Origin: Firmicutes bacterium CAG:95
GTDB lineage: Bacteria; Bacillota; Clostridia; Lachnospirales; Lachnospiraceae
Direction: 5' to 3'
NCBI GenBank assembly: GCA_000438155.1
Contig: FR902981.1
Span: 22,734-86,733 of the forward strand
DNA length: 64,000 nt
Shown: positions 6,092-62,666 of the stretch, piece after piece
Layout of the letters: each line of letters opens with the position of its first letter
Position numbering within the stretch: the stretch's first letter is position 1
The notes under the pieces: generated by a model
Database searches by the model: none
What the model saw: the letters and a program-made list of their open reading frames with translations, nothing else
What the model was told of the DNA's origin: nothing
Program-made: the position numbers and the translations under genes

Positions 6092-7016
6092 AAATGTGCA
6101 ACTATCAAAAAATGGTCGGAGAAGGAATACAGGTAATATGGGAGATATAGTAAAAAGTTTGTATAATGCAGGTTATTCCTTATGGGATACGATTGTGGGA
6201 ATAGCCATGACACTTTTCACAACATCACCGACCGCTGCAGGCGGAGGGGTATATGGAACAGCATATGCTTTATTTCTGGCGATTTCAGATATTTCCATCC
6301 CGATTGCGATTGTGTTTTTTATGATTGCAATTATTAAGGATGTGACATCTACTCCTCCGGACCAGCAGATACGCCGTTTTTTTAATGATGCAATCAAGTT
6401 TGGAGTTATGGTGGGAATTCTGGTTAATCTGTGGAGCATTATGGGGTATGTGATACAAATATCCGATGGTATTACAGGTAATTTAGCTTCCGGAGCTTCC
6501 TATTCACTTATGATACCTGCAGAACTGGAGTCAACAATAGACGAAGCACTTGAAATGCCAGATTTATCCGGGTATGGAATCTGGGAATCTGTTAAGGAAA
6601 TTATGTCATGGATTGGAGCTTTTTTATTGTTCCTGATATCTGGTATTGTGACTTTGTTTGTAGTTGTTGCAAGTGCTATATCTATTTTATCCTGTGCTTT
6701 TCAAAGGATATTAAAACCGCTGGTATTACTGCCTTTTTCCTGTATAACGGTAGCTCTTGCAACAGGGACATCGGAGGCAGGGAGAGTAACAAGCAGTTAC
6801 ATAAAGGCTTTCTTCGGGTTCTGCATCAGTGGGGCTTTCATGGTAATTTGTGTGAATCTAGGAGCTGCATTAGGGAATGGTCTTGTAAATGTGGACTATA
6901 GTGCCATGTCAGATTTCGGGAAAATCATATTCATCAGTGTGCAGAATGCAATTATTCCGATTATTATTGCAGGGCTTGTAAAAAATGCGGACAGCATTAT
7001 CGGAAAATTTTTCTAA
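6084..7016 (+). CDS. Polytopic membrane protein, a VirB6/TrbL-like T4SS channel component candidate
   Basis: 310 aa with at least 6 predicted TM helices, in the T4SS operon. Confidence 0.4.
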   Translation: MCRNVQLSKNGRRRNTGNMGDIVKSLYNAGYSLWDTIVGIAMTLFTTSPTAAGGGVYGTAYALFLAISDISIPIAIVFFMIAIIKDVTSTPPDQQIRRFFNDAIKFGVMVGILVNLWSIMGYVIQISDGITGNLASGASYSLMIPAELESTIDEALEMPDLSGYGIWESVKEIMSWIGAFLLFLISGIVTLFVVVASAISILSCAFQRILKPLVLLPFSCITVALATGTSEAGRVTSSYIKAFFGFCISGAFMVICVNLGAALGNGLVNVDYSAMSDFGKIIFISVQNAIIPIIIAGLVKNADSIIGKFF

Positions 7017-7034
7017 GATAGGGAGAAATAGACT

Positions 7035-7553
7035 ATGGCAACAATGAATCGAAATGTAAATTTGGAAGAAATCAATTCTGATGCTTTTATGGGAATTCCA
7101 TTTTTAAACCATCAGACCATCGGACAGAAGGTAATATTTTGGGGAAGCGTGGTTGTGGCAGTGATATGGAATATACTTGGTACCTTTCTGTTTCATATCA
7201 ATGCAGTAATCATAATTGCTCTCACGTTGGCACCGCTTGCTTTCGGGGTTGCATTTGGCTGCAATTACAACCAGGACCTATCACTATTGGAATACTTGAA
7301 ACTGATATTATTTAAGCCTGCAACAACCTATTATACAAAGCCTGTGGAAGATTTGGAGCAGATAAAGATAGCTGCAGCAAGGATGGATAAGGAGGCAGAA
7401 CTTCTGGAGAAGCAAAAAGAGGTAACACCGGAGCAACAACGAAAATTACTAATCAGACTGTTATCCGGAGTACTGATTGTGGTGCTTTTGTTTGTTATTT
7501 TCTTAATTGTACTCATAGCTTCCAAGGAAGATGTACTGCATCATGTAATCTGA
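7035..7553 (+). CDS. Conjugation-associated small membrane protein
   Basis: 172 aa. Two to three TM helices, then a charged coiled-coil stretch, then a C-terminal TM. Operon context. Confidence 0.35.
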   Translation: MATMNRNVNLEEINSDAFMGIPFLNHQTIGQKVIFWGSVVVAVIWNILGTFLFHINAVIIIALTLAPLAFGVAFGCNYNQDLSLLEYLKLILFKPATTYYTKPVEDLEQIKIAAARMDKEAELLEKQKEVTPEQQRKLLIRLLSGVLIVVLLFVIFLIVLIASKEDVLHHVI

Positions 7554-8819: not shown

Positions 8820-8830
8820 ACAAACATATA

Positions 8831-8889
8831 CTTCGTGCCATAATGGCACGAAGTAATGAAATATAGCAAAGGGTATATGAATTGGGAGC
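8831..8889. repeat. Hairpin-containing repeat, copy A (cttcgtgccataatggcacgaag ... tatagcaaa ... attggga)
   Basis: A 10-bp perfect stem with a taa loop. It is similar to the copy at 9537..9599 on the far side of the HD-GYP gene. Confidence 0.6.
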
Positions 8890-23121: not shown

Positions 23122-23164
23122 AGACGAAAGTTACGTAACTGTTCAGTACCTTCACAGTTACGAT

Positions 23165-23205
23165 GCAAAATCCATTCCAAATCGGCTTCGCCGATGGGAT
23201 TTTGC
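23165..23205 (+). terminator. Structured hairpin downstream of the TPR/DUF4037 gene. Likely a terminator or a leader structure of the MATE gene.
   Basis: gcaaaatcc a ttccaa atcggc ttc gccgat ggattttgc forms a nested near-perfect stem. The following U-tract is weak (cattttctt). Confidence 0.35.
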
Positions 23206-23301
23206 ATTACTGAATCATTTTCTTACGGTCTCAGCAGTAAATGCTTCGACCTGTACTGAATCGTTACAAATTTACAATAATGATCTGAGGGTAAGGATAA
23301 A

Positions 23302-24654
23302 ATGGAAAAAACAAAATCCTATGAAATCGATATGTGCCATGGGCCTTTGTTTCGAAAAATACTGTTATTTACGCTGCCATTGATGCTTTCAGGTATATTA
23401 CAACTGTTATTTAATGCGGCGGATGTTATTGTGGTTGGACAGTTTGCCGGTAACGAGGCATTAGCGGCAGTGGGTTCTACGAGTGCATTGACCAATCTTC
23501 TGGTGAATTTGTTTATTGGATTATCGGTTGGTGTCAATGTGTTGGTAGCACGGTTTTATGGTGCACAGCAGGAGCAGGAAGCACAGGAAGCAGTTCATAC
23601 TGCAGTTGTAGTAAGTATTCTTGGCGGTATTTTGCTTGCTTTTATAGGAATTGTACTGGCACAACCACTGCTTCAATGGATGGATACACCGGACAATGTC
23701 ATTAGTCATTCCGTGCTTTATATGCGGATCTACTTTGTGGGAATGCCGGTGATGCTGCTATATAACTTCGGAAGTGCAATATTAAGAGCAATTGGGGATA
23801 CCAGACGACCATTGTATTTCCTGGCAGCCGCAGGCGTGATTAATGTTATTCTGAATCTGATTTTTGTGATCAATTTTCATATGGGGGTTGCGGGCGTAGC
23901 GCTTGCAACAATTATATCCCAGTGCGTTTCAGCGGCATTGATCATGCGTTGCCTGATGAAGAGTGAGGGCTGTATCAGGGTAGAATGGACGAAGCTTCGT
24001 ATTCATTGGAGAATGCTTGGAAAGATTGCACAGATCGGACTTCCGGCGGGAGTACAGGGTGTGCTGTTTTCCATATCCAATGTGCTGATTCAGTCATCGG
24101 TAAATTCTTTTGGATCAGTAGCTATGGCCGGAAATACCGCTGCACAGAATGTAGAAGGGTTTGTGTATACTTCAATGAATTCGGTGCATCAGACGGCCGT
24201 GAGCTTTACCAGTCAGAACCTTGGCGGCAGACAGTATGGAAGAATCAATAAAATATTGACAGAGTGTCTTTTATTTGTAACGGCGGTTGGACTGATTCTT
24301 GGCAATGGTGCTTATCTGTTAGGAAATCAGATTCTTGGAATTTATTCTTCTGATCCTGAGGTCATTGCTTATGGATTGGAACGGTTGTCAATTATCTGTA
24401 CCATGTATTGCCTGTGCGGAATTATGGATGTACTGGTGGGATCCATCCGGGGGCTTGGCTATGCAGTGATGCCGATGATTGTTTCCTTAATGGGGGTATG
24501 TTTTTTTCGTGTGGTTTATATTTATACGATATTCCAGTGGAGCAGAACCTTACAGACGCTGTATATTTCCTATCCCATTACCTGGACGTTGACGGCAGCC
24601 GTTCATGTAATCTGTTTTGTGATTGTGCGAAGGAAGATCGGGATGCAGAAATAA
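23302..24654 (+). CDS. MATE-family multidrug efflux transporter
   Basis: 450 aa with 12 TM helices. The N-terminal motif LLFTLPLMLSGILQLLFNAADVIVVGQF is typical of MATE/NorM-like pumps. Confidence 0.85.
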   Translation: MEKTKSYEIDMCHGPLFRKILLFTLPLMLSGILQLLFNAADVIVVGQFAGNEALAAVGSTSALTNLLVNLFIGLSVGVNVLVARFYGAQQEQEAQEAVHTAVVVSILGGILLAFIGIVLAQPLLQWMDTPDNVISHSVLYMRIYFVGMPVMLLYNFGSAILRAIGDTRRPLYFLAAAGVINVILNLIFVINFHMGVAGVALATIISQCVSAALIMRCLMKSEGCIRVEWTKLRIHWRMLGKIAQIGLPAGVQGVLFSISNVLIQSSVNSFGSVAMAGNTAAQNVEGFVYTSMNSVHQTAVSFTSQNLGGRQYGRINKILTECLLFVTAVGLILGNGAYLLGNQILGIYSSDPEVIAYGLERLSIICTMYCLCGIMDVLVGSIRGLGYAVMPMIVSLMGVCFFRVVYIYTIFQWSRTLQTLYISYPITWTLTAAVHVICFVIVRRKIGMQK

Positions 24655-24927
24655 TGGCAGTACAGGGACATTAGCATAGATAAGTAGAAGTACAGTACAG
24701 AAATGATAGGATGTAGTATAGAAGTACTTGTAAAAATCATGGAAGGAAAAGCTCATAAGCATATAGATAACAAGAAAATAAAGCAATAGATAATAAAGTA
24801 ATAAGGTAGTGAAATAACTGGTTAATAAAGTAATAGAGGTATGGTGAAAATCCCTGTAGAATCCGGAGTTATGTTAGAAAGAACATGGCGTTCGGTTTCC
24901 TACAGGGATTTCTTTGACTTCAAATAA

Positions 24928-25446
24928 GCTGCAAATGATTTATTATGTTCTTCTGGAATTGTTGGGTTCATTGGAGAGAACGGAGCTGGAAAGAGTTCAA
25001 CCATTAAGGCAATTCTTAATTTAGTACATAAAGAAACGGGTGATATTTATCTCTTTGGACATCCAATGGAGGGCAATGAAAAGGAGAATGGAAGCAATCA
25101 GTGGAAGGAACAGCTTGGTGTTATTTTTGATGAATGTAATATGCCTGTTGAGTTCACGGCAAAGGAGATTCATCATATTATGAATGAGTTTTACCGGACA
25201 TGGGAGGGAAAAGAAATATTTTGCTTATTTAAGGAAGCTTCAGGTTCTTACAGACAAGAAGGTAAAGGATTTGTCGAAGGGAATGAGATTCCGGATGAGC
25301 AGATCATCGGAAAGATGGAAAATGCATATGGAGCCCATGTACTGGTAAAAAATACGGCAGGATGGAAACAGGAAGGATTTGTTGTGGATCATGCTTCCGT
25401 TGAAGATATTTTGCTTTATATTGTTAAGAGAGACGAGGTGAGATAA
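24928..25446 (+). pseudogene. Remnant of an ABC-transporter ATP-binding protein, BcrA/lantibiotic-immunity type
   Basis: The open frame begins right after a TAA with no start codon. Walker A is intact (GFIGENGAGKSSTIK). There is no ABC signature or Walker B, and the product is only about 170 aa, so the gene is N-terminally truncated and internally deleted. Confidence 0.6.
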
Positions 25447-25448
25447 GA

Positions 25449-25670
25449 ATGAAAGGATTATTGTTAAAGGATTTATACAATGTAAAAGGATTTGCCAGAC
25501 AGTATGTGATCGTTATTCTGGCGATGGCTGTGTGGGGAGTCTGCATGAAAAATATATCATTTGTGTCGATTTATATGGTGATTCTAGGTGGGATGATGAG
25601 CATTACAACCATGAGCATGGATGAAAGCAGTGGATTTAATAAGTTTTATCTCACAACTTGCGAGGAGTGA
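25449..25670 (+). pseudogene. N-terminal fragment (73 aa, 2 TM) of an ABC-2 type permease
   Basis: MKGLLLKDLYN... is a typical ABC-2 permease start. The frame ends after two helices. Confidence 0.5.
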
Positions 25671-25747
25671 ACAGTAATCTGAAAAAGGATTGGCATGAGA
25701 CGAAAAAAATAGTATAGTTAATAGGATAGCAAAGAAAGGGAACACTT

Positions 25748-27280
25748 ATGGAAAAAGCAGATAGTTATCAGGTAAGAAAACTGAATCCGAGGAAAGAGTA
25801 TCTTATTCAGGTGCCAGGGTCGAAAAGTATTACCAACCGGGCGTTTTTGTTAGCTGCGCTATCCGGTAAGAAGTGTGTATTGTCGGGAGTCCTGTTTAGT
25901 GATGATACAAGAGGCTTCTTAGACTGTCTGATCCAGCTTGGATTCCGGGTAGAAATCAAGGAAGAAAAGCAGAAGGTGACCATTCAGGGTACGGATGGCA
26001 GGATTCCAAACCCGGAGGCATCCATCAATGTAAGAAGTGCAGGAACAGCGGCACGGTTTCTTACGGTTGCACTGGCTTTTGCAGGTGGTAATTATTATCT
26101 GGATGCATCCGAACAGATGCGTAAGCGTCCGATGGAGCCGATCCTGAAAATATTAGAGAAATTGAATGTTAAATTCAGATTTAATAATGAAGAATATCAT
26201 TTTCCCTTTGAACTGTCTTCGCAATTTACAGAAGATGAAGAACAGAAAGATAAAGTACAGAATGATAAAATACAGAAAGACAAAATACAGAAGATGGAAG
26301 CGGAAGAAGATAGATGCCGGAATGATGTAGCACAGGAAGAGAATGAGATGAGTGAAATCACTATTGATACGAATCTCAGCAGTCAGTTCGCAAGTGCCTT
26401 ACTGATGGCAGCATGCCTCCTTCCAACGGGATTAAAGATACATCTGACCGGAAGCAGAACCGCTGGATCCTATATTAAAATGACACTTGCTATGATGAAG
26501 CAGTTTGGCATTCGGGTGGAACAGTCAGAAAACTGCTATGTGATCGCTCATCAGGAAGGATGGGGGCTTACGGAATATGAAGTTGAGCCGGATGTATCGG
26601 CAGCCTGCTACTTTTATGCCATGGTTCCTTTACTGAAAACAAGTGTTATTGTTAAGGGGGTTCAGGAGAAATCCTTACAGGGAGACATTCAATTCCTGAA
26701 CGTATTGGAACAGATGGGATGTCAGAAAGAGAAGACGCCCAAAGGAATACGGCTGACTATGAAGGAGCCGGAAATGCATGGCGTGGATATTTCGATGAAG
26801 GACTTTTCGGATCAGACGATGACACTGGCTGCGCTTGCACCTTTTGCAGACCGTGTTACCAGAATTCACAATATCGGACATATACGTTTTCAGGAATCGG
26901 ACCGGATCCGTGCGATTTTGACAGAATTGCAGCGAATGGGAGTTCGGTGCGAAGAGGCTCCGGAGATTGACGGAATTCAGATTTTTCCGTGGGGGAAAGT
27001 TCCTGAAGATCATATTGTAGCGGAAGGTGAAAGTACAATAGAATGTGAAAGTACAACAGAGAATGAAAGTGCAGCAGAAAGTAAAAGTGCAGCAGAGCGT
27101 GAAAGTATAATAGAACGTGGAAACATAACAATAGAAACCTACGATGACCACCGGATGGCAATGGCGTTTACGCTTCCGGGATTAAAGACGGGAAATATAG
27201 TGATTAAGAATCCGGGATGCTGCCGCAAAACATTTGAAAATTACTTTTCGGTAATTGATTCCTTATATCAGTGTCATTGA
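25748..27280 (+). CDS. aroA: 3-phosphoshikimate 1-carboxyvinyltransferase (EPSP synthase) with two low-complexity in-frame insertions
   Basis: The LIQVPGSKSITNRAFLLAAL motif and the overall EPSPS layout. 510 aa versus the usual 430-450 aa, because of D/K/Q- and E/S-rich inserts. Confidence 0.85.
   Translation: MEKADSYQVRKLNPRKEYLIQVPGSKSITNRAFLLAALSGKKCVLSGVLFSDDTRGFLDCLIQLGFRVEIKEEKQKVTIQGTDGRIPNPEASINVRSAGTAARFLTVALAFAGGNYYLDASEQMRKRPMEPILKILEKLNVKFRFNNEEYHFPFELSSQFTEDEEQKDKVQNDKIQKDKIQKMEAEEDRCRNDVAQEENEMSEITIDTNLSSQFASALLMAACLLPTGLKIHLTGSRTAGSYIKMTLAMMKQFGIRVEQSENCYVIAHQEGWGLTEYEVEPDVSAACYFYAMVPLLKTSVIVKGVQEKSLQGDIQFLNVLEQMGCQKEKTPKGIRLTMKEPEMHGVDISMKDFSDQTMTLAALAPFADRVTRIHNIGHIRFQESDRIRAILTELQRMGVRCEEAPEIDGIQIFPWGKVPEDHIVAEGESTIECESTTENESAAESKSAAERESIIERGNITIETYDDHRMAMAFTLPGLKTGNIVIKNPGCCRKTFENYFSVIDSLYQCH
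26250..26294. repeat. 3 x 15-nt in-frame tandem repeat inside aroA, encoding DKVQN/DKIQK/DKIQK
   Basis: gataaagtacagaat gataaaatacagaaa gacaaaatacagaag. Confidence 0.7.
27029..27118. repeat. 5 x 18-nt in-frame tandem repeat inside aroA, encoding ESTIEC/ESTTEN/ESAAES/KSAAER/ESIIER
   Basis: gaaagtacaatagaatgt gaaagtacaacagagaat gaaagtgcagcagaaagt aaaagtgcagcagagcgt gaaagtataatagaacgt. Confidence 0.7.
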
Positions 27281-27332: not shown

Positions 27333-28865
27333 TTGGATAATTTCATAAGAGGTGCTATGGAAGAGTATTGGGATATTTTTTTAGAGGAACAACAGAATAG
27401 AGAATTGGAACGGGTACTGCTCGTCGGAGTAGATACGGGAGAAGAACAGAATTTTGATAACTCCATGGAAGAATTGAAACAACTGGCGAAGGCGTGTTTC
27501 ATGGAACCGGTTGGGACGGTTACCCAAAGAATGGAATTCGTGCATAAAGCACTTTACATTGGAACCGGAAAGGTACAGGAAGTACGGGATGCTGCGCAGG
27601 CTTTGGATGCGCAGCTTATTCTAATTAATGATACCTTGACGCCTTCCCAGATCAAAAACCTGCAGAATGAATTAAAAACACCTGTTATTGATCGGACAAC
27701 CCTGATTCTCAATATTTTTGAGATGAGAGCCAGAACACGGGAAGCCAGGTTACAGGTAGAAACAGCCAAGCTGCAATATCTCCTGCCGCGTCTTGTTGGA
27801 ATGCATGAGGCACTGACCAGACAGGGAGGAACCAGTGGCAGTATGAGCAGCCGTGGTGCCGGAGAGAAAAAGCTGGAGCTTGACCGCCGTCACATTGAGC
27901 ACCGTATCAGTGAACTGCGTAAAGAACTGGATGCCATTTCCAGAGAACGTGAAACACAGAGAAAGCGCAGGGGACAATCCCGAATTCCTCTGGTAGCATT
28001 GGTTGGCTATACGAATGCAGGAAAATCGACCATTATGAATCATATGGTCGAACGGTTTGTAGGGGATGAAGAGAAAAAGGTGCTGGAAAGGGATATGCTT
28101 TTCGCAACACTGGATACGACAATCCGGCGGATCAACACCGGAAATAATCAGGATTTTCTGCTAACGGATACAGTCGGGTTCATTCATAAGCTTCCACATG
28201 GTCTTGTGAAGGCATTCCATTCGACATTGGAGGAAATTAAAGGAGCAGATCTGCTCCTGCAGGTCGTGGATGTTTCTGACCCCGGGTATCAGGAACAGAT
28301 GGAGACTACGAGAGAGACCCTGCGGGAGTTGGGGGCTGGAGATATTCCCATGCTGATTGTCTTTAATAAGGCCGATCGGCTCACGAATACAGCGAATACG
28401 ACCGGGAAGCCACGGAACCAGATGGAGCAGGAGCAGAAACTACAGAACCAGAAACTACAGAACCAGAAACTACAGGACCAGAAACTACAGGATCAGAAAT
28501 TGCAGGATCAGAATCCACAGAATCAGATGCTGCAGCTTCACAAGACACCGGATCAGGAAAAAGAATTGCAACAGATGTCTTTGGGGGAAACCACATATCC
28601 GAGAACAGCAGGAACGAATAAGATATACATCAGCGCAAGGCAGCCGGAATCCATCGAATTACTGGTAAAGGAAATTATCAGGAGAGTTTATGCAGATTAT
28701 GAGGAGGTTCGCTTGCTGATTCCCTATGACAAGGGCAGCATTGTTTCGTATCTGCAGGAAAATGCACAGATTCTGGAACAGTCCTATGAACCTGAAGGAA
28801 CACGGCTTCGTGTGAATTGCCATCATGCCGATGCCGGGAAGTATGAGCAGTATGTTGTGAAGTGA
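27333..28865 (+). CDS. hflX: GTPase HflX with a Q/K-rich tandem-repeat insertion
   Basis: HflX N-domain, then G1 (ALVGYTNAGKST), G3 (DTVGF) and G4 (NKAD). 510 aa versus about 420-440 aa. Confidence 0.85.
   Translation: MDNFIRGAMEEYWDIFLEEQQNRELERVLLVGVDTGEEQNFDNSMEELKQLAKACFMEPVGTVTQRMEFVHKALYIGTGKVQEVRDAAQALDAQLILINDTLTPSQIKNLQNELKTPVIDRTTLILNIFEMRARTREARLQVETAKLQYLLPRLVGMHEALTRQGGTSGSMSSRGAGEKKLELDRRHIEHRISELRKELDAISRERETQRKRRGQSRIPLVALVGYTNAGKSTIMNHMVERFVGDEEKKVLERDMLFATLDTTIRRINTGNNQDFLLTDTVGFIHKLPHGLVKAFHSTLEEIKGADLLLQVVDVSDPGYQEQMETTRETLRELGAGDIPMLIVFNKADRLTNTANTTGKPRNQMEQEQKLQNQKLQNQKLQDQKLQDQKLQDQNPQNQMLQLHKTPDQEKELQQMSLGETTYPRTAGTNKIYISARQPESIELLVKEIIRRVYADYEEVRLLIPYDKGSIVSYLQENAQILEQSYEPEGTRLRVNCHHADAGKYEQYVVK
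28434..28535. repeat. About 6-7 copies of a 15-nt in-frame tandem repeat in hflX, encoding QKLQN/QKLQD
   Basis: cagaaactacagaac cagaaactacagaac cagaaactacaggac cagaaactacaggat cagaaattgcaggat cagaatccacagaat. Confidence 0.7.
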
Positions 28866-29040: not shown

Positions 29041-29210
29041 GAATATAGGTAACTATTCAGAGCCATGCAAATTATGACAATATGGACGTCGAATGCATGC
29101 ATTCGTAAGGACATTTGGCATAATTTATATGGCGAAGTAACCACATGAGGTAAACTACGTTGCGTTAGCAACGGTTTTACGAATGGGGATCTGAATAGTT
29201 ACGAATATAG
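29041..29210. mobile_element. MITE-like non-autonomous element. 154 bp, perfect 13-bp terminal inverted repeats, flanked by an 8-bp target-site duplication.
   Basis: TSD GAATATAG at 29041-29048 and again at 29203-29210. TIR gtaactattcaga (29049-29061) against tctgaatagttac (29190-29202). The interior holds nested palindromes (cgaatgcatgcattcg, cgttgcgttagcaacg) and no ORF. Confidence 0.7.
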
Positions 29211-29257
29211 AAAGATTAAAATACAGAAAGATAAGGAAGATCAGGGATATCAGGAAT

Positions 29258-29968
29258 ATGGAAAAAGAACGCTTGAATAAATATCTGGCATCCTGTGGCG
29301 TCTGTTCACGGAGAGATGCAGACAGTCTCATTGATCAGGGACTGGTTACGGTGAATGGAAAACCTGCAGCCATGGGAATGCGTGTCTCGGCAGAGGACTC
29401 CATTTTAGTGCGTGGAAAGAGCATTCATGGAAAGAATGATAAAGTGGTTCTGGCCTATTATAAGCCGGTGGGAGTAACCTGTACGGAACGGGATCGCTTC
29501 GCAGACAGGAAAATTACGGATATGGTAAGGTTCCCGGTGAGAGTGACTTATGCAGGGCGCCTTGACAAGGATTCGGAAGGACTGATTCTTCTCACGAATG
29601 ATGGTGAGCTGATTAATGCCATGATGAAGGGGAGTGCCGGACACGAAAAGGAATATATCGTAAAGTTAAATAAAGAAATTACAGAGGATTTCATTCAAAA
29701 GATGGGAGAGGGAGTCTGGCTTCCAGAGTTAAAAATAAAAACCAGACCGTGCAAAGCTGAGCAGATCGGCAAGTTTACTTTCCGTATCATACTGACTCAG
29801 GGAGTCAACAGACAGATACGCAGAATGTCGAAAGCACTTGGGTATGAAGTGAAGGAACTGAAGCGTATTCGTGTGGTAAATATCGAACTTGCAAAGTTAA
29901 AAAAAGGAGAATATCGGCAGATACTCGGGGCGGAATTACAAGCGTTATACGATGCGGTCTACCAATAG
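29258..29968 (+). CDS. Pseudouridine synthase, RsuA/RluB family (S4 RNA-binding domain plus catalytic domain)
   Basis: S4 domain (RLNKYLASCGVCSRRDADSLIDQGLVTVNG) and catalytic-Asp motif (GRLDKDSEGLILLTNDGEL). Confidence 0.8.
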   Translation: MEKERLNKYLASCGVCSRRDADSLIDQGLVTVNGKPAAMGMRVSAEDSILVRGKSIHGKNDKVVLAYYKPVGVTCTERDRFADRKITDMVRFPVRVTYAGRLDKDSEGLILLTNDGELINAMMKGSAGHEKEYIVKLNKEITEDFIQKMGEGVWLPELKIKTRPCKAEQIGKFTFRIILTQGVNRQIRRMSKALGYEVKELKRIRVVNIELAKLKKGEYRQILGAELQALYDAVYQ

Positions 29969-30193
29969 AAGAGATCTGTGAGGGATTGTGACCCAAGATC
30001 TTGTTAGGAAACGACAAATAGAAAAACAGGTTTCATTTTATGAAAAAGAGTAGAAATCGAATGAGAACGGGAATTATGAAATAACCGCCTGAAAGTAAAA
30101 CAGAATGACTTGCAGGAAAACTTGCAAAATTCAGTTTGCATAAGAGATATAATTCTTATTTAAGCTGAAATATAAAAGAAAGAGATTGCCAAA

Positions 30194-62596: not shown

Positions 62597-62666
62597 GCTG
62601 TTCTCTCCATTTTCTGATCGTAATTATTCAGCTGCTTTTAATCTATAGTAACGATTCAGCCCGGCT

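Follow-up and report, generated by a model that had tools for sequence, protein, structure and literature searches.

Between an hflX-like gene that ends at position 28865 and an rluF-type gene at 29258-29968 of the window (the whole 64,000-nucleotide stretch of DNA that was analysed) lies a 154-bp element, in which perfect 13-bp terminal inverted repeats (GTAACTATTCAGA / TCTGAATAGTTAC) enclose an interior of 128 nt. The downstream gene encodes a 236-aa S4/PseudoU_synth_2 protein identical to CDF07963.1 of Firmicutes bacterium CAG:95, and close members of its protein cluster are annotated as 23S rRNA pseudouridine synthase F. An earlier note on this DNA had reported exact 13-bp terminal inverted repeats with identical flanking 8-mers, placed between hflX and a pseudouridine synthase gene, and both the coordinates and the two neighbours were verified. 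The element has no protein-coding capacity, the two ORFs that overlap it (44 and 58 aa, both on the minus strand) being chance ORFs. Its features, including the parts of the predicted fold discussed further below, are as follows.

29041-29048, no strand: left 8-bp target-site duplication, GAATATAG (read from the sequence; a single copy in empty alleles)
29049-29061, plus strand: left terminal inverted repeat, GTAACTATTCAGA, forming the 5' arm of stem P1 (sequence)
29062-29133, plus strand: hairpin P2, with conserved base GCCATG/TATGGC, a variable long stem and a GC(A/T)TGC apex (predicted fold and covariation)
29134-29140, plus strand: conserved junction strand GAAGTAA between P2 and P3 (alignment and predicted fold)
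29141-29187, plus strand: hairpin P3, with conserved base CCACAT/ATGGGG, a tandem GA/GA internal loop, a variable apical stem and a GNRA-type or GNA-type loop (alignment and predicted fold)
29190-29202, minus strand: right terminal inverted repeat, reading TCTGAATAGTTAC on the plus strand (sequence)
29203-29210, no strand: right 8-bp target-site duplication, GAATATAG (sequence, other copies and empty sites)

First-order Markov simulation of the window (100 runs) gave on average 0.32 perfect 13-bp inverted repeats within 250 nt per simulated window, and identical 8-mers flanking such a repeat appeared in 0 of the 100. The real window contains two perfect 13-bp inverted repeats, one being the 154-bp element and the other a simple hairpin at 8829-8855 (TACTTCGTGCCAT-A-ATGGCACGAAGTA), possibly a terminator. 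The ATAT core of the window 8-mer is itself palindromic and therefore also lengthens the terminal stem in the fold, so that the window copy alone is weaker evidence for a duplication than it appears; it is the other copies and the empty sites that establish the target-site duplication. Directly to the right of the element (29208-29235 in the window; about 2900-2990 in contigs L134-L143) lies a 16-nt tandem unit, AAAGATTAAAATAYAG, whose copy number ranges from about 1 to 4 among strains with identical RluF, and the insertion site coincides with the edge of this array.

Dispersed copies, their duplications and empty sites

Using a two-block pattern built from the conserved parts and one genome per species, we found the same element, 121-160 bp long, at at least 111 loci in at least 57 assemblies, which answers the earlier note's proposal to look for further copies of the 154-bp unit. 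Single assemblies carry the element at up to at least 10 loci, and the neighbouring genes differ between copies. Among the matches listed, the carriers are nearly all Lachnospiraceae (Fusicatenibacter, Waltera, Roseburia, Acetatifactor, Agathobacter and Anaerobutyricum), and the few carrier bins labelled Prevotella, Odoribacter and the like are taken to be mis-binned. The first diverged copies came from four human-faecal contigs filed as 'Bacteriophage sp.', in which the element stands in a different gene context each time, the contexts including sigF/spoIIAB, aspartoacylase-like genes and dnaB. Contigs L001-L004 and L233 (MT838621, MT839705, MT839733, MT836555 and MT837605) are GenBank entries from human faeces titled 'UNVERIFIED: Bacteriophage sp.'; they contain sigF-spoIIAB-spoIIAA, dnaB, metabolic genes and an IS66 transposase, and look like fragments of bacterial (Clostridia) chromosomes, not phage. 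No copy was found in the PLSDB plasmids searched, and in the IMG/VR viral contigs the two-block pattern gave 0 matches and a 16-mer gave 18, all of them chance.

The 8-bp target-site duplication proposed in the earlier note recurs at other loci, each time with a sequence of its own. Among the 94 complete copies in the matches listed, the 8-mers outside GTAAC...GTTAC agree at 8 of 8 positions in 31 and at 7 of 8 in 12, and the duplicated sequence differs from site to site; with shuffled partners, the corresponding frequencies were 0% and 0.6%. The duplicated 8-mers have an A+T content of 84%, compared with 61% in the flanks, and follow a roughly symmetric AA...TTT pattern. Positions 5-13 of the inverted repeat are invariant in 86 distinct copies. 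Assembly CAVFMG01 holds three identical 143-bp copies, each within a different perfect duplication, and one Roseburia MAG holds two identical copies at different sites, which points to recent movement. The family also has minimal derivatives (L108 2365-2385, L078 5417-5437, L079 5601-5632, L062 6297-6333 and L070 about 6950-7040), comprising 21-bp end-to-end palindromes GTAACTATTCTGAATAGTTAC, 32-36-bp versions and one copy reduced to P1 and P2; such derivatives may have arisen by deletion or been left behind by excision.

Contigs encoding an RluF identical to the window's protein allowed the insertion site itself to be compared between strains. As in the window, the site is occupied and bordered by GAATATAG on both sides in L135-138, L140, L142 and L143. 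The empty site with a single 8-mer, which the earlier note had suggested looking for in related strains, is present in L134, L139 and L141: L139 and L141 read GAACATAG in the context ...GCTTAAGAACATAGAAAGATT..., and L134 reads ...GAGCATAG.... In the window lineage, the element was inserted behind hflX and 55 nt upstream of the rluF start codon, and other strains still have this site empty, although empty sites could in principle also be precise excisions. A second family copy, in the opposite orientation, is likewise polymorphic: it precedes the ligA start codon by about 30 nt, at about 3905-4075 in L136, L138, L140 and L142, with diverged flanks (about 5/8 matching), and the window carries the empty allele at about 30150-30165.

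Terminal sequences and the IS66 family

Comparison of sequences gives good support to the view that the ends GTAACTATTCAG and the AT-rich 8-bp duplication are those of the IS66 family, ISBst12 group. ISDge4 of Deinococcus geothermalis, an IS66-family element of this group with a single 449-aa transposase, has the ends GTGACTACTCAGCA / GTAACTGCTCAGCA and an 8-bp duplication (PMC12898284), and one ISBst12-group element is recorded on the Geobacillus plasmid pHTA426 (PMC8024623). The pHTA426 IS, 1635 bp long, has the ends GTATCTATTCAGCCC / GTAACTATTCAGCCC and the duplication GACGAGTT; the better of its two ends agrees with the end of our element at 12 of 12 bases, and its transposase has Pfam matches to DDE_Tnp_IS66, zf-IS66 and DUF6444. 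Metagenomic relatives of this transposase have GTAACTnnTCAG-type end pairs 1.5-1.7 kb apart around the gene in 68 of 80 cases, and many of these 68 ISs end exactly in GTAACTATTCAG, with perfect 8-bp duplications in 11. The left inverted repeat (IRL) of one such metagenomic IS, L149, is identical at 19 of 19 positions to the right end of the window element, which reads GTAACTATTCAGATCCCCA inward with its neighbouring bases. A gut Turicibacter IS of 1627 bp (single 469-aa transposase, ends GTAACTATTCAGCC) has perfect AT-rich 8-bp duplications in 6 of 10 copies. In all, the identity over the 12 bases of GTAACTATTCAG extends to the ends of the pHTA426 IS, the Turicibacter IS and at least 10 metagenomic ISs.

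This match bears on the choice of family made in the earlier note, which had named IS256, ISL3, IS4 and IS6 as families that an 8-bp duplication would fit. The shared GTAACTATTCAG ends, taken with the duplication, fit the ISBst12 group of IS66 better, and to our knowledge none of the four families has ends that start GTAAC. Given the positive IS66 match, these candidates become unnecessary.

Lachnospiraceae also harbour a very abundant 2.25-kb IS66-family IS with ends GTTACTGTTCAG and 8-bp duplications, whose protein clusters are named Blautia stercoris, Blautia sp. and Acetatifactor sp. and reach 8182 member sequences in gut metagenomes. This IS mismatches the end of the element at 2 of 12 terminal positions, and the ISs with exact ends were found in Bacilli, Turicibacter, Deinococcus and environmental metagenomes. 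No ends were recognisable in contig L246, which carries the IS of the Acetatifactor cluster. Among the copies sampled, the 2.25-kb IS was found neither beside the element nor in the same contigs.

The loci that carry the element were also searched for a parent. A tblastn search with 120 ISBst12-type transposases found no IS66-family gene in the window and 0.9 Mb of carrier DNA, and neither the window nor the 8-kb stretches surrounding the copies yielded a transposase gene. Long end pairs, orphan ends and multi-copy ORFs revealed no parent IS in the carrier loci, nor was any long element bounded by these ends and a duplication found there. A candidate truncated end in L085 falls inside a diacylglycerol-kinase gene. 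The interior of the element has no similarity to IS subterminal DNA past about 19-24 terminal nt in any IS examined, and the comparison thus gives no support to an origin by internal deletion of a known IS. Mobilisation needs the ends only, so the lack of interior similarity leaves the reading of the element as one mobilised by an IS66-family transposase intact.

Two further places in the window have sequences like these ends. One is a second candidate element:

23135-23267, plus strand: second, 133-bp candidate element with ends GTAACTGTTCAGT / ACTGAATCGTTAC of the ISBst12 type (sequence and predicted fold)

It is flanked by AAAGTTAC / AAATTTAC, which match at 7 of 8 positions, and adjoins a MATE efflux gene, lying directly upstream of it. 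It is present in 8 of 8 contigs that encode an identical MATE protein; only these orthologous copies were found, and none at other sites. Its interior is unrelated to that of the main family, and its predicted fold (-50 kcal/mol, z = -7.6) has the same three-way-junction layout as the element beside rluF. At 62620-62660 of the window, two direct 12-mers that lie 28 nt apart and resemble the ends of the element, GTAATTATTCAG and GTAACGATTCAG, adjoin the start of a minus-strand gene; neither was found to have an inverted partner, and the pair may be a remnant or may be due to chance. As a separate strain difference, the interval between the MATE gene and an EPSP-synthase gene (window 24654-25748; compared in L225-L232) holds a GntR regulator and ABC-transporter genes in most strains, and short remnants only in the window and in L226 (L226 ORFs of 126 aa and 73 aa).

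The three-way junction

The nested palindromes that the earlier note had seen in the interior resolve, in the predicted fold of the plus strand, into a three-way junction made of P1 (the paired ends), the long hairpin P2 and the hairpin P3. The predicted energy is -62.7 kcal/mol (z = -8.7 against shuffles), compared with -52.3 kcal/mol for the minus strand. The 86 distinct copies conserve their ends, the base of each hairpin (P2 and P3) and the GAAGTAA junction strand; their distal stems, although wholly different in sequence and length, retain their pairing. When the structure of the window copy was placed on the alignment, 84.9% of cells were paired. The covariation score was 0.149, compared with 0.050 in shuffles (0 of 500 shuffles reached 0.149) and with a best score of 0.063 when partners were slid by 1-3 columns, values that derive from related sequences and from a reference structure taken from one of them, the window copy. 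In P2, both sides have changed in 17 of 21 pairs and 94% of cells are paired; in P3, 11-39 sequences have double changes at the apical pairs, and the GA/GA loop is swapped for Watson-Crick TC/GA in five copies.

This pattern suggests that the three-way junction is maintained by compensatory substitutions that keep both P2 and P3, as judged from the alignment and the modelled fold. Such changes can also arise through neutral template switching or self-correction of palindromes at replication, with no selection involved. That the 133-bp candidate shares both ends and layout with the main family and has an unrelated interior argues for selection on the architecture itself. Whether the junction is the working part of the element is a more tentative matter, and we lean against it: it might act as a single-stranded DNA or RNA fold in IS66-family transposition or in host tolerance, or as a portable RNA module that alters the stability or processing of any transcript into which the element has inserted.

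Less likely again, and a minority reading in our judgement, is that the element is primarily a structured non-coding RNA with a function, either a cis-regulatory 5' UTR or a small RNA, its mobility being secondary and its junction selected through transcript stability, processing or attenuation. The earlier note had raised a related possibility, that the interior could be transcribed as a structured small RNA in the 5' UTR of the downstream gene, here rluF. The strength of the fold and the extensive covariation in P2 and P3 would suit such an RNA, as would the better folding of the plus strand in 83 of the 86 copies, but no Rfam 15 family matched the window at gathering thresholds or the element at E <= 10, and no promoter or terminator was predicted within the element above chance. 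One invariant G-T wobble, at alignment columns 19/83, likewise suggests RNA; outside this pair, however, G-T occupies 55 cells and A-C 83, the A-C count being partly inflated by misaligned columns, and the plus strand is not favoured. The loops are ambiguous in the same way. The apical loops CUUG and GNRA of the element are of stable RNA types, G(CUUG)C and GNRA both counting as RNA-type loops. Its GNA triloops are just as characteristic of stable hairpins made of DNA, for which C(GNA)G is a classic triloop.

The position of the copies relative to genes speaks in both directions as well. Many copies end 20-60 nt ahead of a ribosome-binding site, which favours the RNA reading, yet the neighbouring genes are unrelated to one another (rluF, ligA, sigF, dnaB, MATE and others). 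Co-orientation with both neighbours was counted for 46 copies and antisense orientation to both for 22, while 11 lie between divergent and 3 between convergent genes, counts that include orthologous sites and are confounded with replication direction. The orientation is a bias, not a rule, about a third of the copies being antisense to their neighbours. A GC-skew test of replication-linked orientation was, at this scale, fully confounded with gene orientation.

It is extremely improbable that chance or a lineage-specific palindrome accounts for the ends and the flanking duplication, or that they belong to another repeat class (REP/RAYT, an IS200/IS605-type hairpin or an integron attC site): the palindromic ATAT core does extend the stem of the window copy, and the hairpins of the interior bear a superficial likeness to folded sites of the REP or attC kind, but dozens of copies have different perfect 8-bp duplications, conspecific strains have empty sites, and IS66-family ISs have identical ends. 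REP and IS200/IS605 elements are not known to have a target duplication or terminal inverted repeats, and attC sites stand in cassette arrays beside an integrase; neither pattern is seen here. The 8-bp duplication, together with the repeat ends and the empty sites, led us to drop the retron, attC, REP/RAYT and IS200/IS605 readings.

Probable mobilisation and comparison with known elements

We consider it highly probable (about 0.88) that the element is a non-coding, non-autonomous DNA transposon (MITE) with ends of the IS66-family ISBst12 group, mobilised by a transposase of that kind. The earlier note had already read it as a non-autonomous element moved by a transposase, and the further copies, their own 8-bp duplications and the empty sites support that reading. 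The mobilisation would occur in trans: a DDE transposase of the IS66 ISBst12 group, encoded elsewhere, would bind the GTAACTATTCAG ends and move or copy the element, which would enter intergenic, AT-rich DNA at cuts with an 8-bp stagger, whose repair would leave the 8-bp duplication. On the likeliest reading, master copies would need the three-way-junction fold in order to go on spreading or to be tolerated.

It is known that MITEs generate variation between strains in the neighbourhood of genes. The present family, which is widespread in abundant Lachnospiraceae of the human gut and has been active there recently, creates presence/absence polymorphism just upstream of the housekeeping genes rluF and ligA. 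As a small repeat tied to the poorly understood IS66/ISBst12 transposases, it offers a compact substrate for studies of end recognition, and its covarying junction raises the testable question of whether the fold of a MITE is relevant to its spread or to its host. In practical terms, such repeats break metagenome assemblies and may serve as strain markers. In the searchable literature, whose coverage is incomplete, we found no description of a Lachnospiraceae MITE, of a MITE derived from IS66/ISBst12 or of this element.

The nearest known systems by end sequence are the ISBst12-group ISs (ISBst12, ISDge4, the 'ISGka4-family' element of pHTA426 and the Turicibacter IS), with which the element shares the 8-bp duplication, the AT-rich targets and the GTAACTATTCAG ends (12 of 12 positions, and up to 19 of 19 with one metagenomic IS). 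Whereas these ISs are 1.5-1.7 kb long and encode a DDE_Tnp_IS66 transposase, the element has 154 bp and no gene, and its interior bears no recognisable likeness to their subterminal regions. The 2.25-kb Blautia stercoris IS (L263 402-2649, GCA_054657695.1; also L244/L245) comes from the same bacterial family and has 8-bp AT-rich duplications (here TTATTATA), and its left end GTTACTGTTCAGAGGTATGCATAA is identical to that of the element at 18 of 24 positions. Unlike the element, it encodes a small upstream ORF of 54-57 aa and a 557-aa transposase, and it differs at 2 of the 12 terminal bases.

In its general build, the element is like other bacterial MITEs: it is shorter than about 500 bp, has no transposase gene, carries terminal inverted repeats and a duplication of fixed length and variable sequence, and occurs as dispersed copies with empty-site polymorphism. 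Correia (Neisseria), ERIC/IRU (enterobacteria), RUP (pneumococcus), bcr1 (Bacillus cereus group) and MITEAba12 are short, non-coding, intergenic, multi-copy MITEs with terminal inverted repeats, target duplication, strong folding and strain polymorphism, the duplication being TA for Correia, ERIC and RUP and 9 bp for MITEAba12. The element shares with them its length class, inverted repeats, duplication, folding and polymorphism, and differs from them in the parent IS family and in the length of the duplication. It also differs in architecture, since those MITEs form one long imperfect palindrome, whereas the prediction for the element is a three-way junction, in which two hairpins, independent of each other, show covariation across subfamilies.
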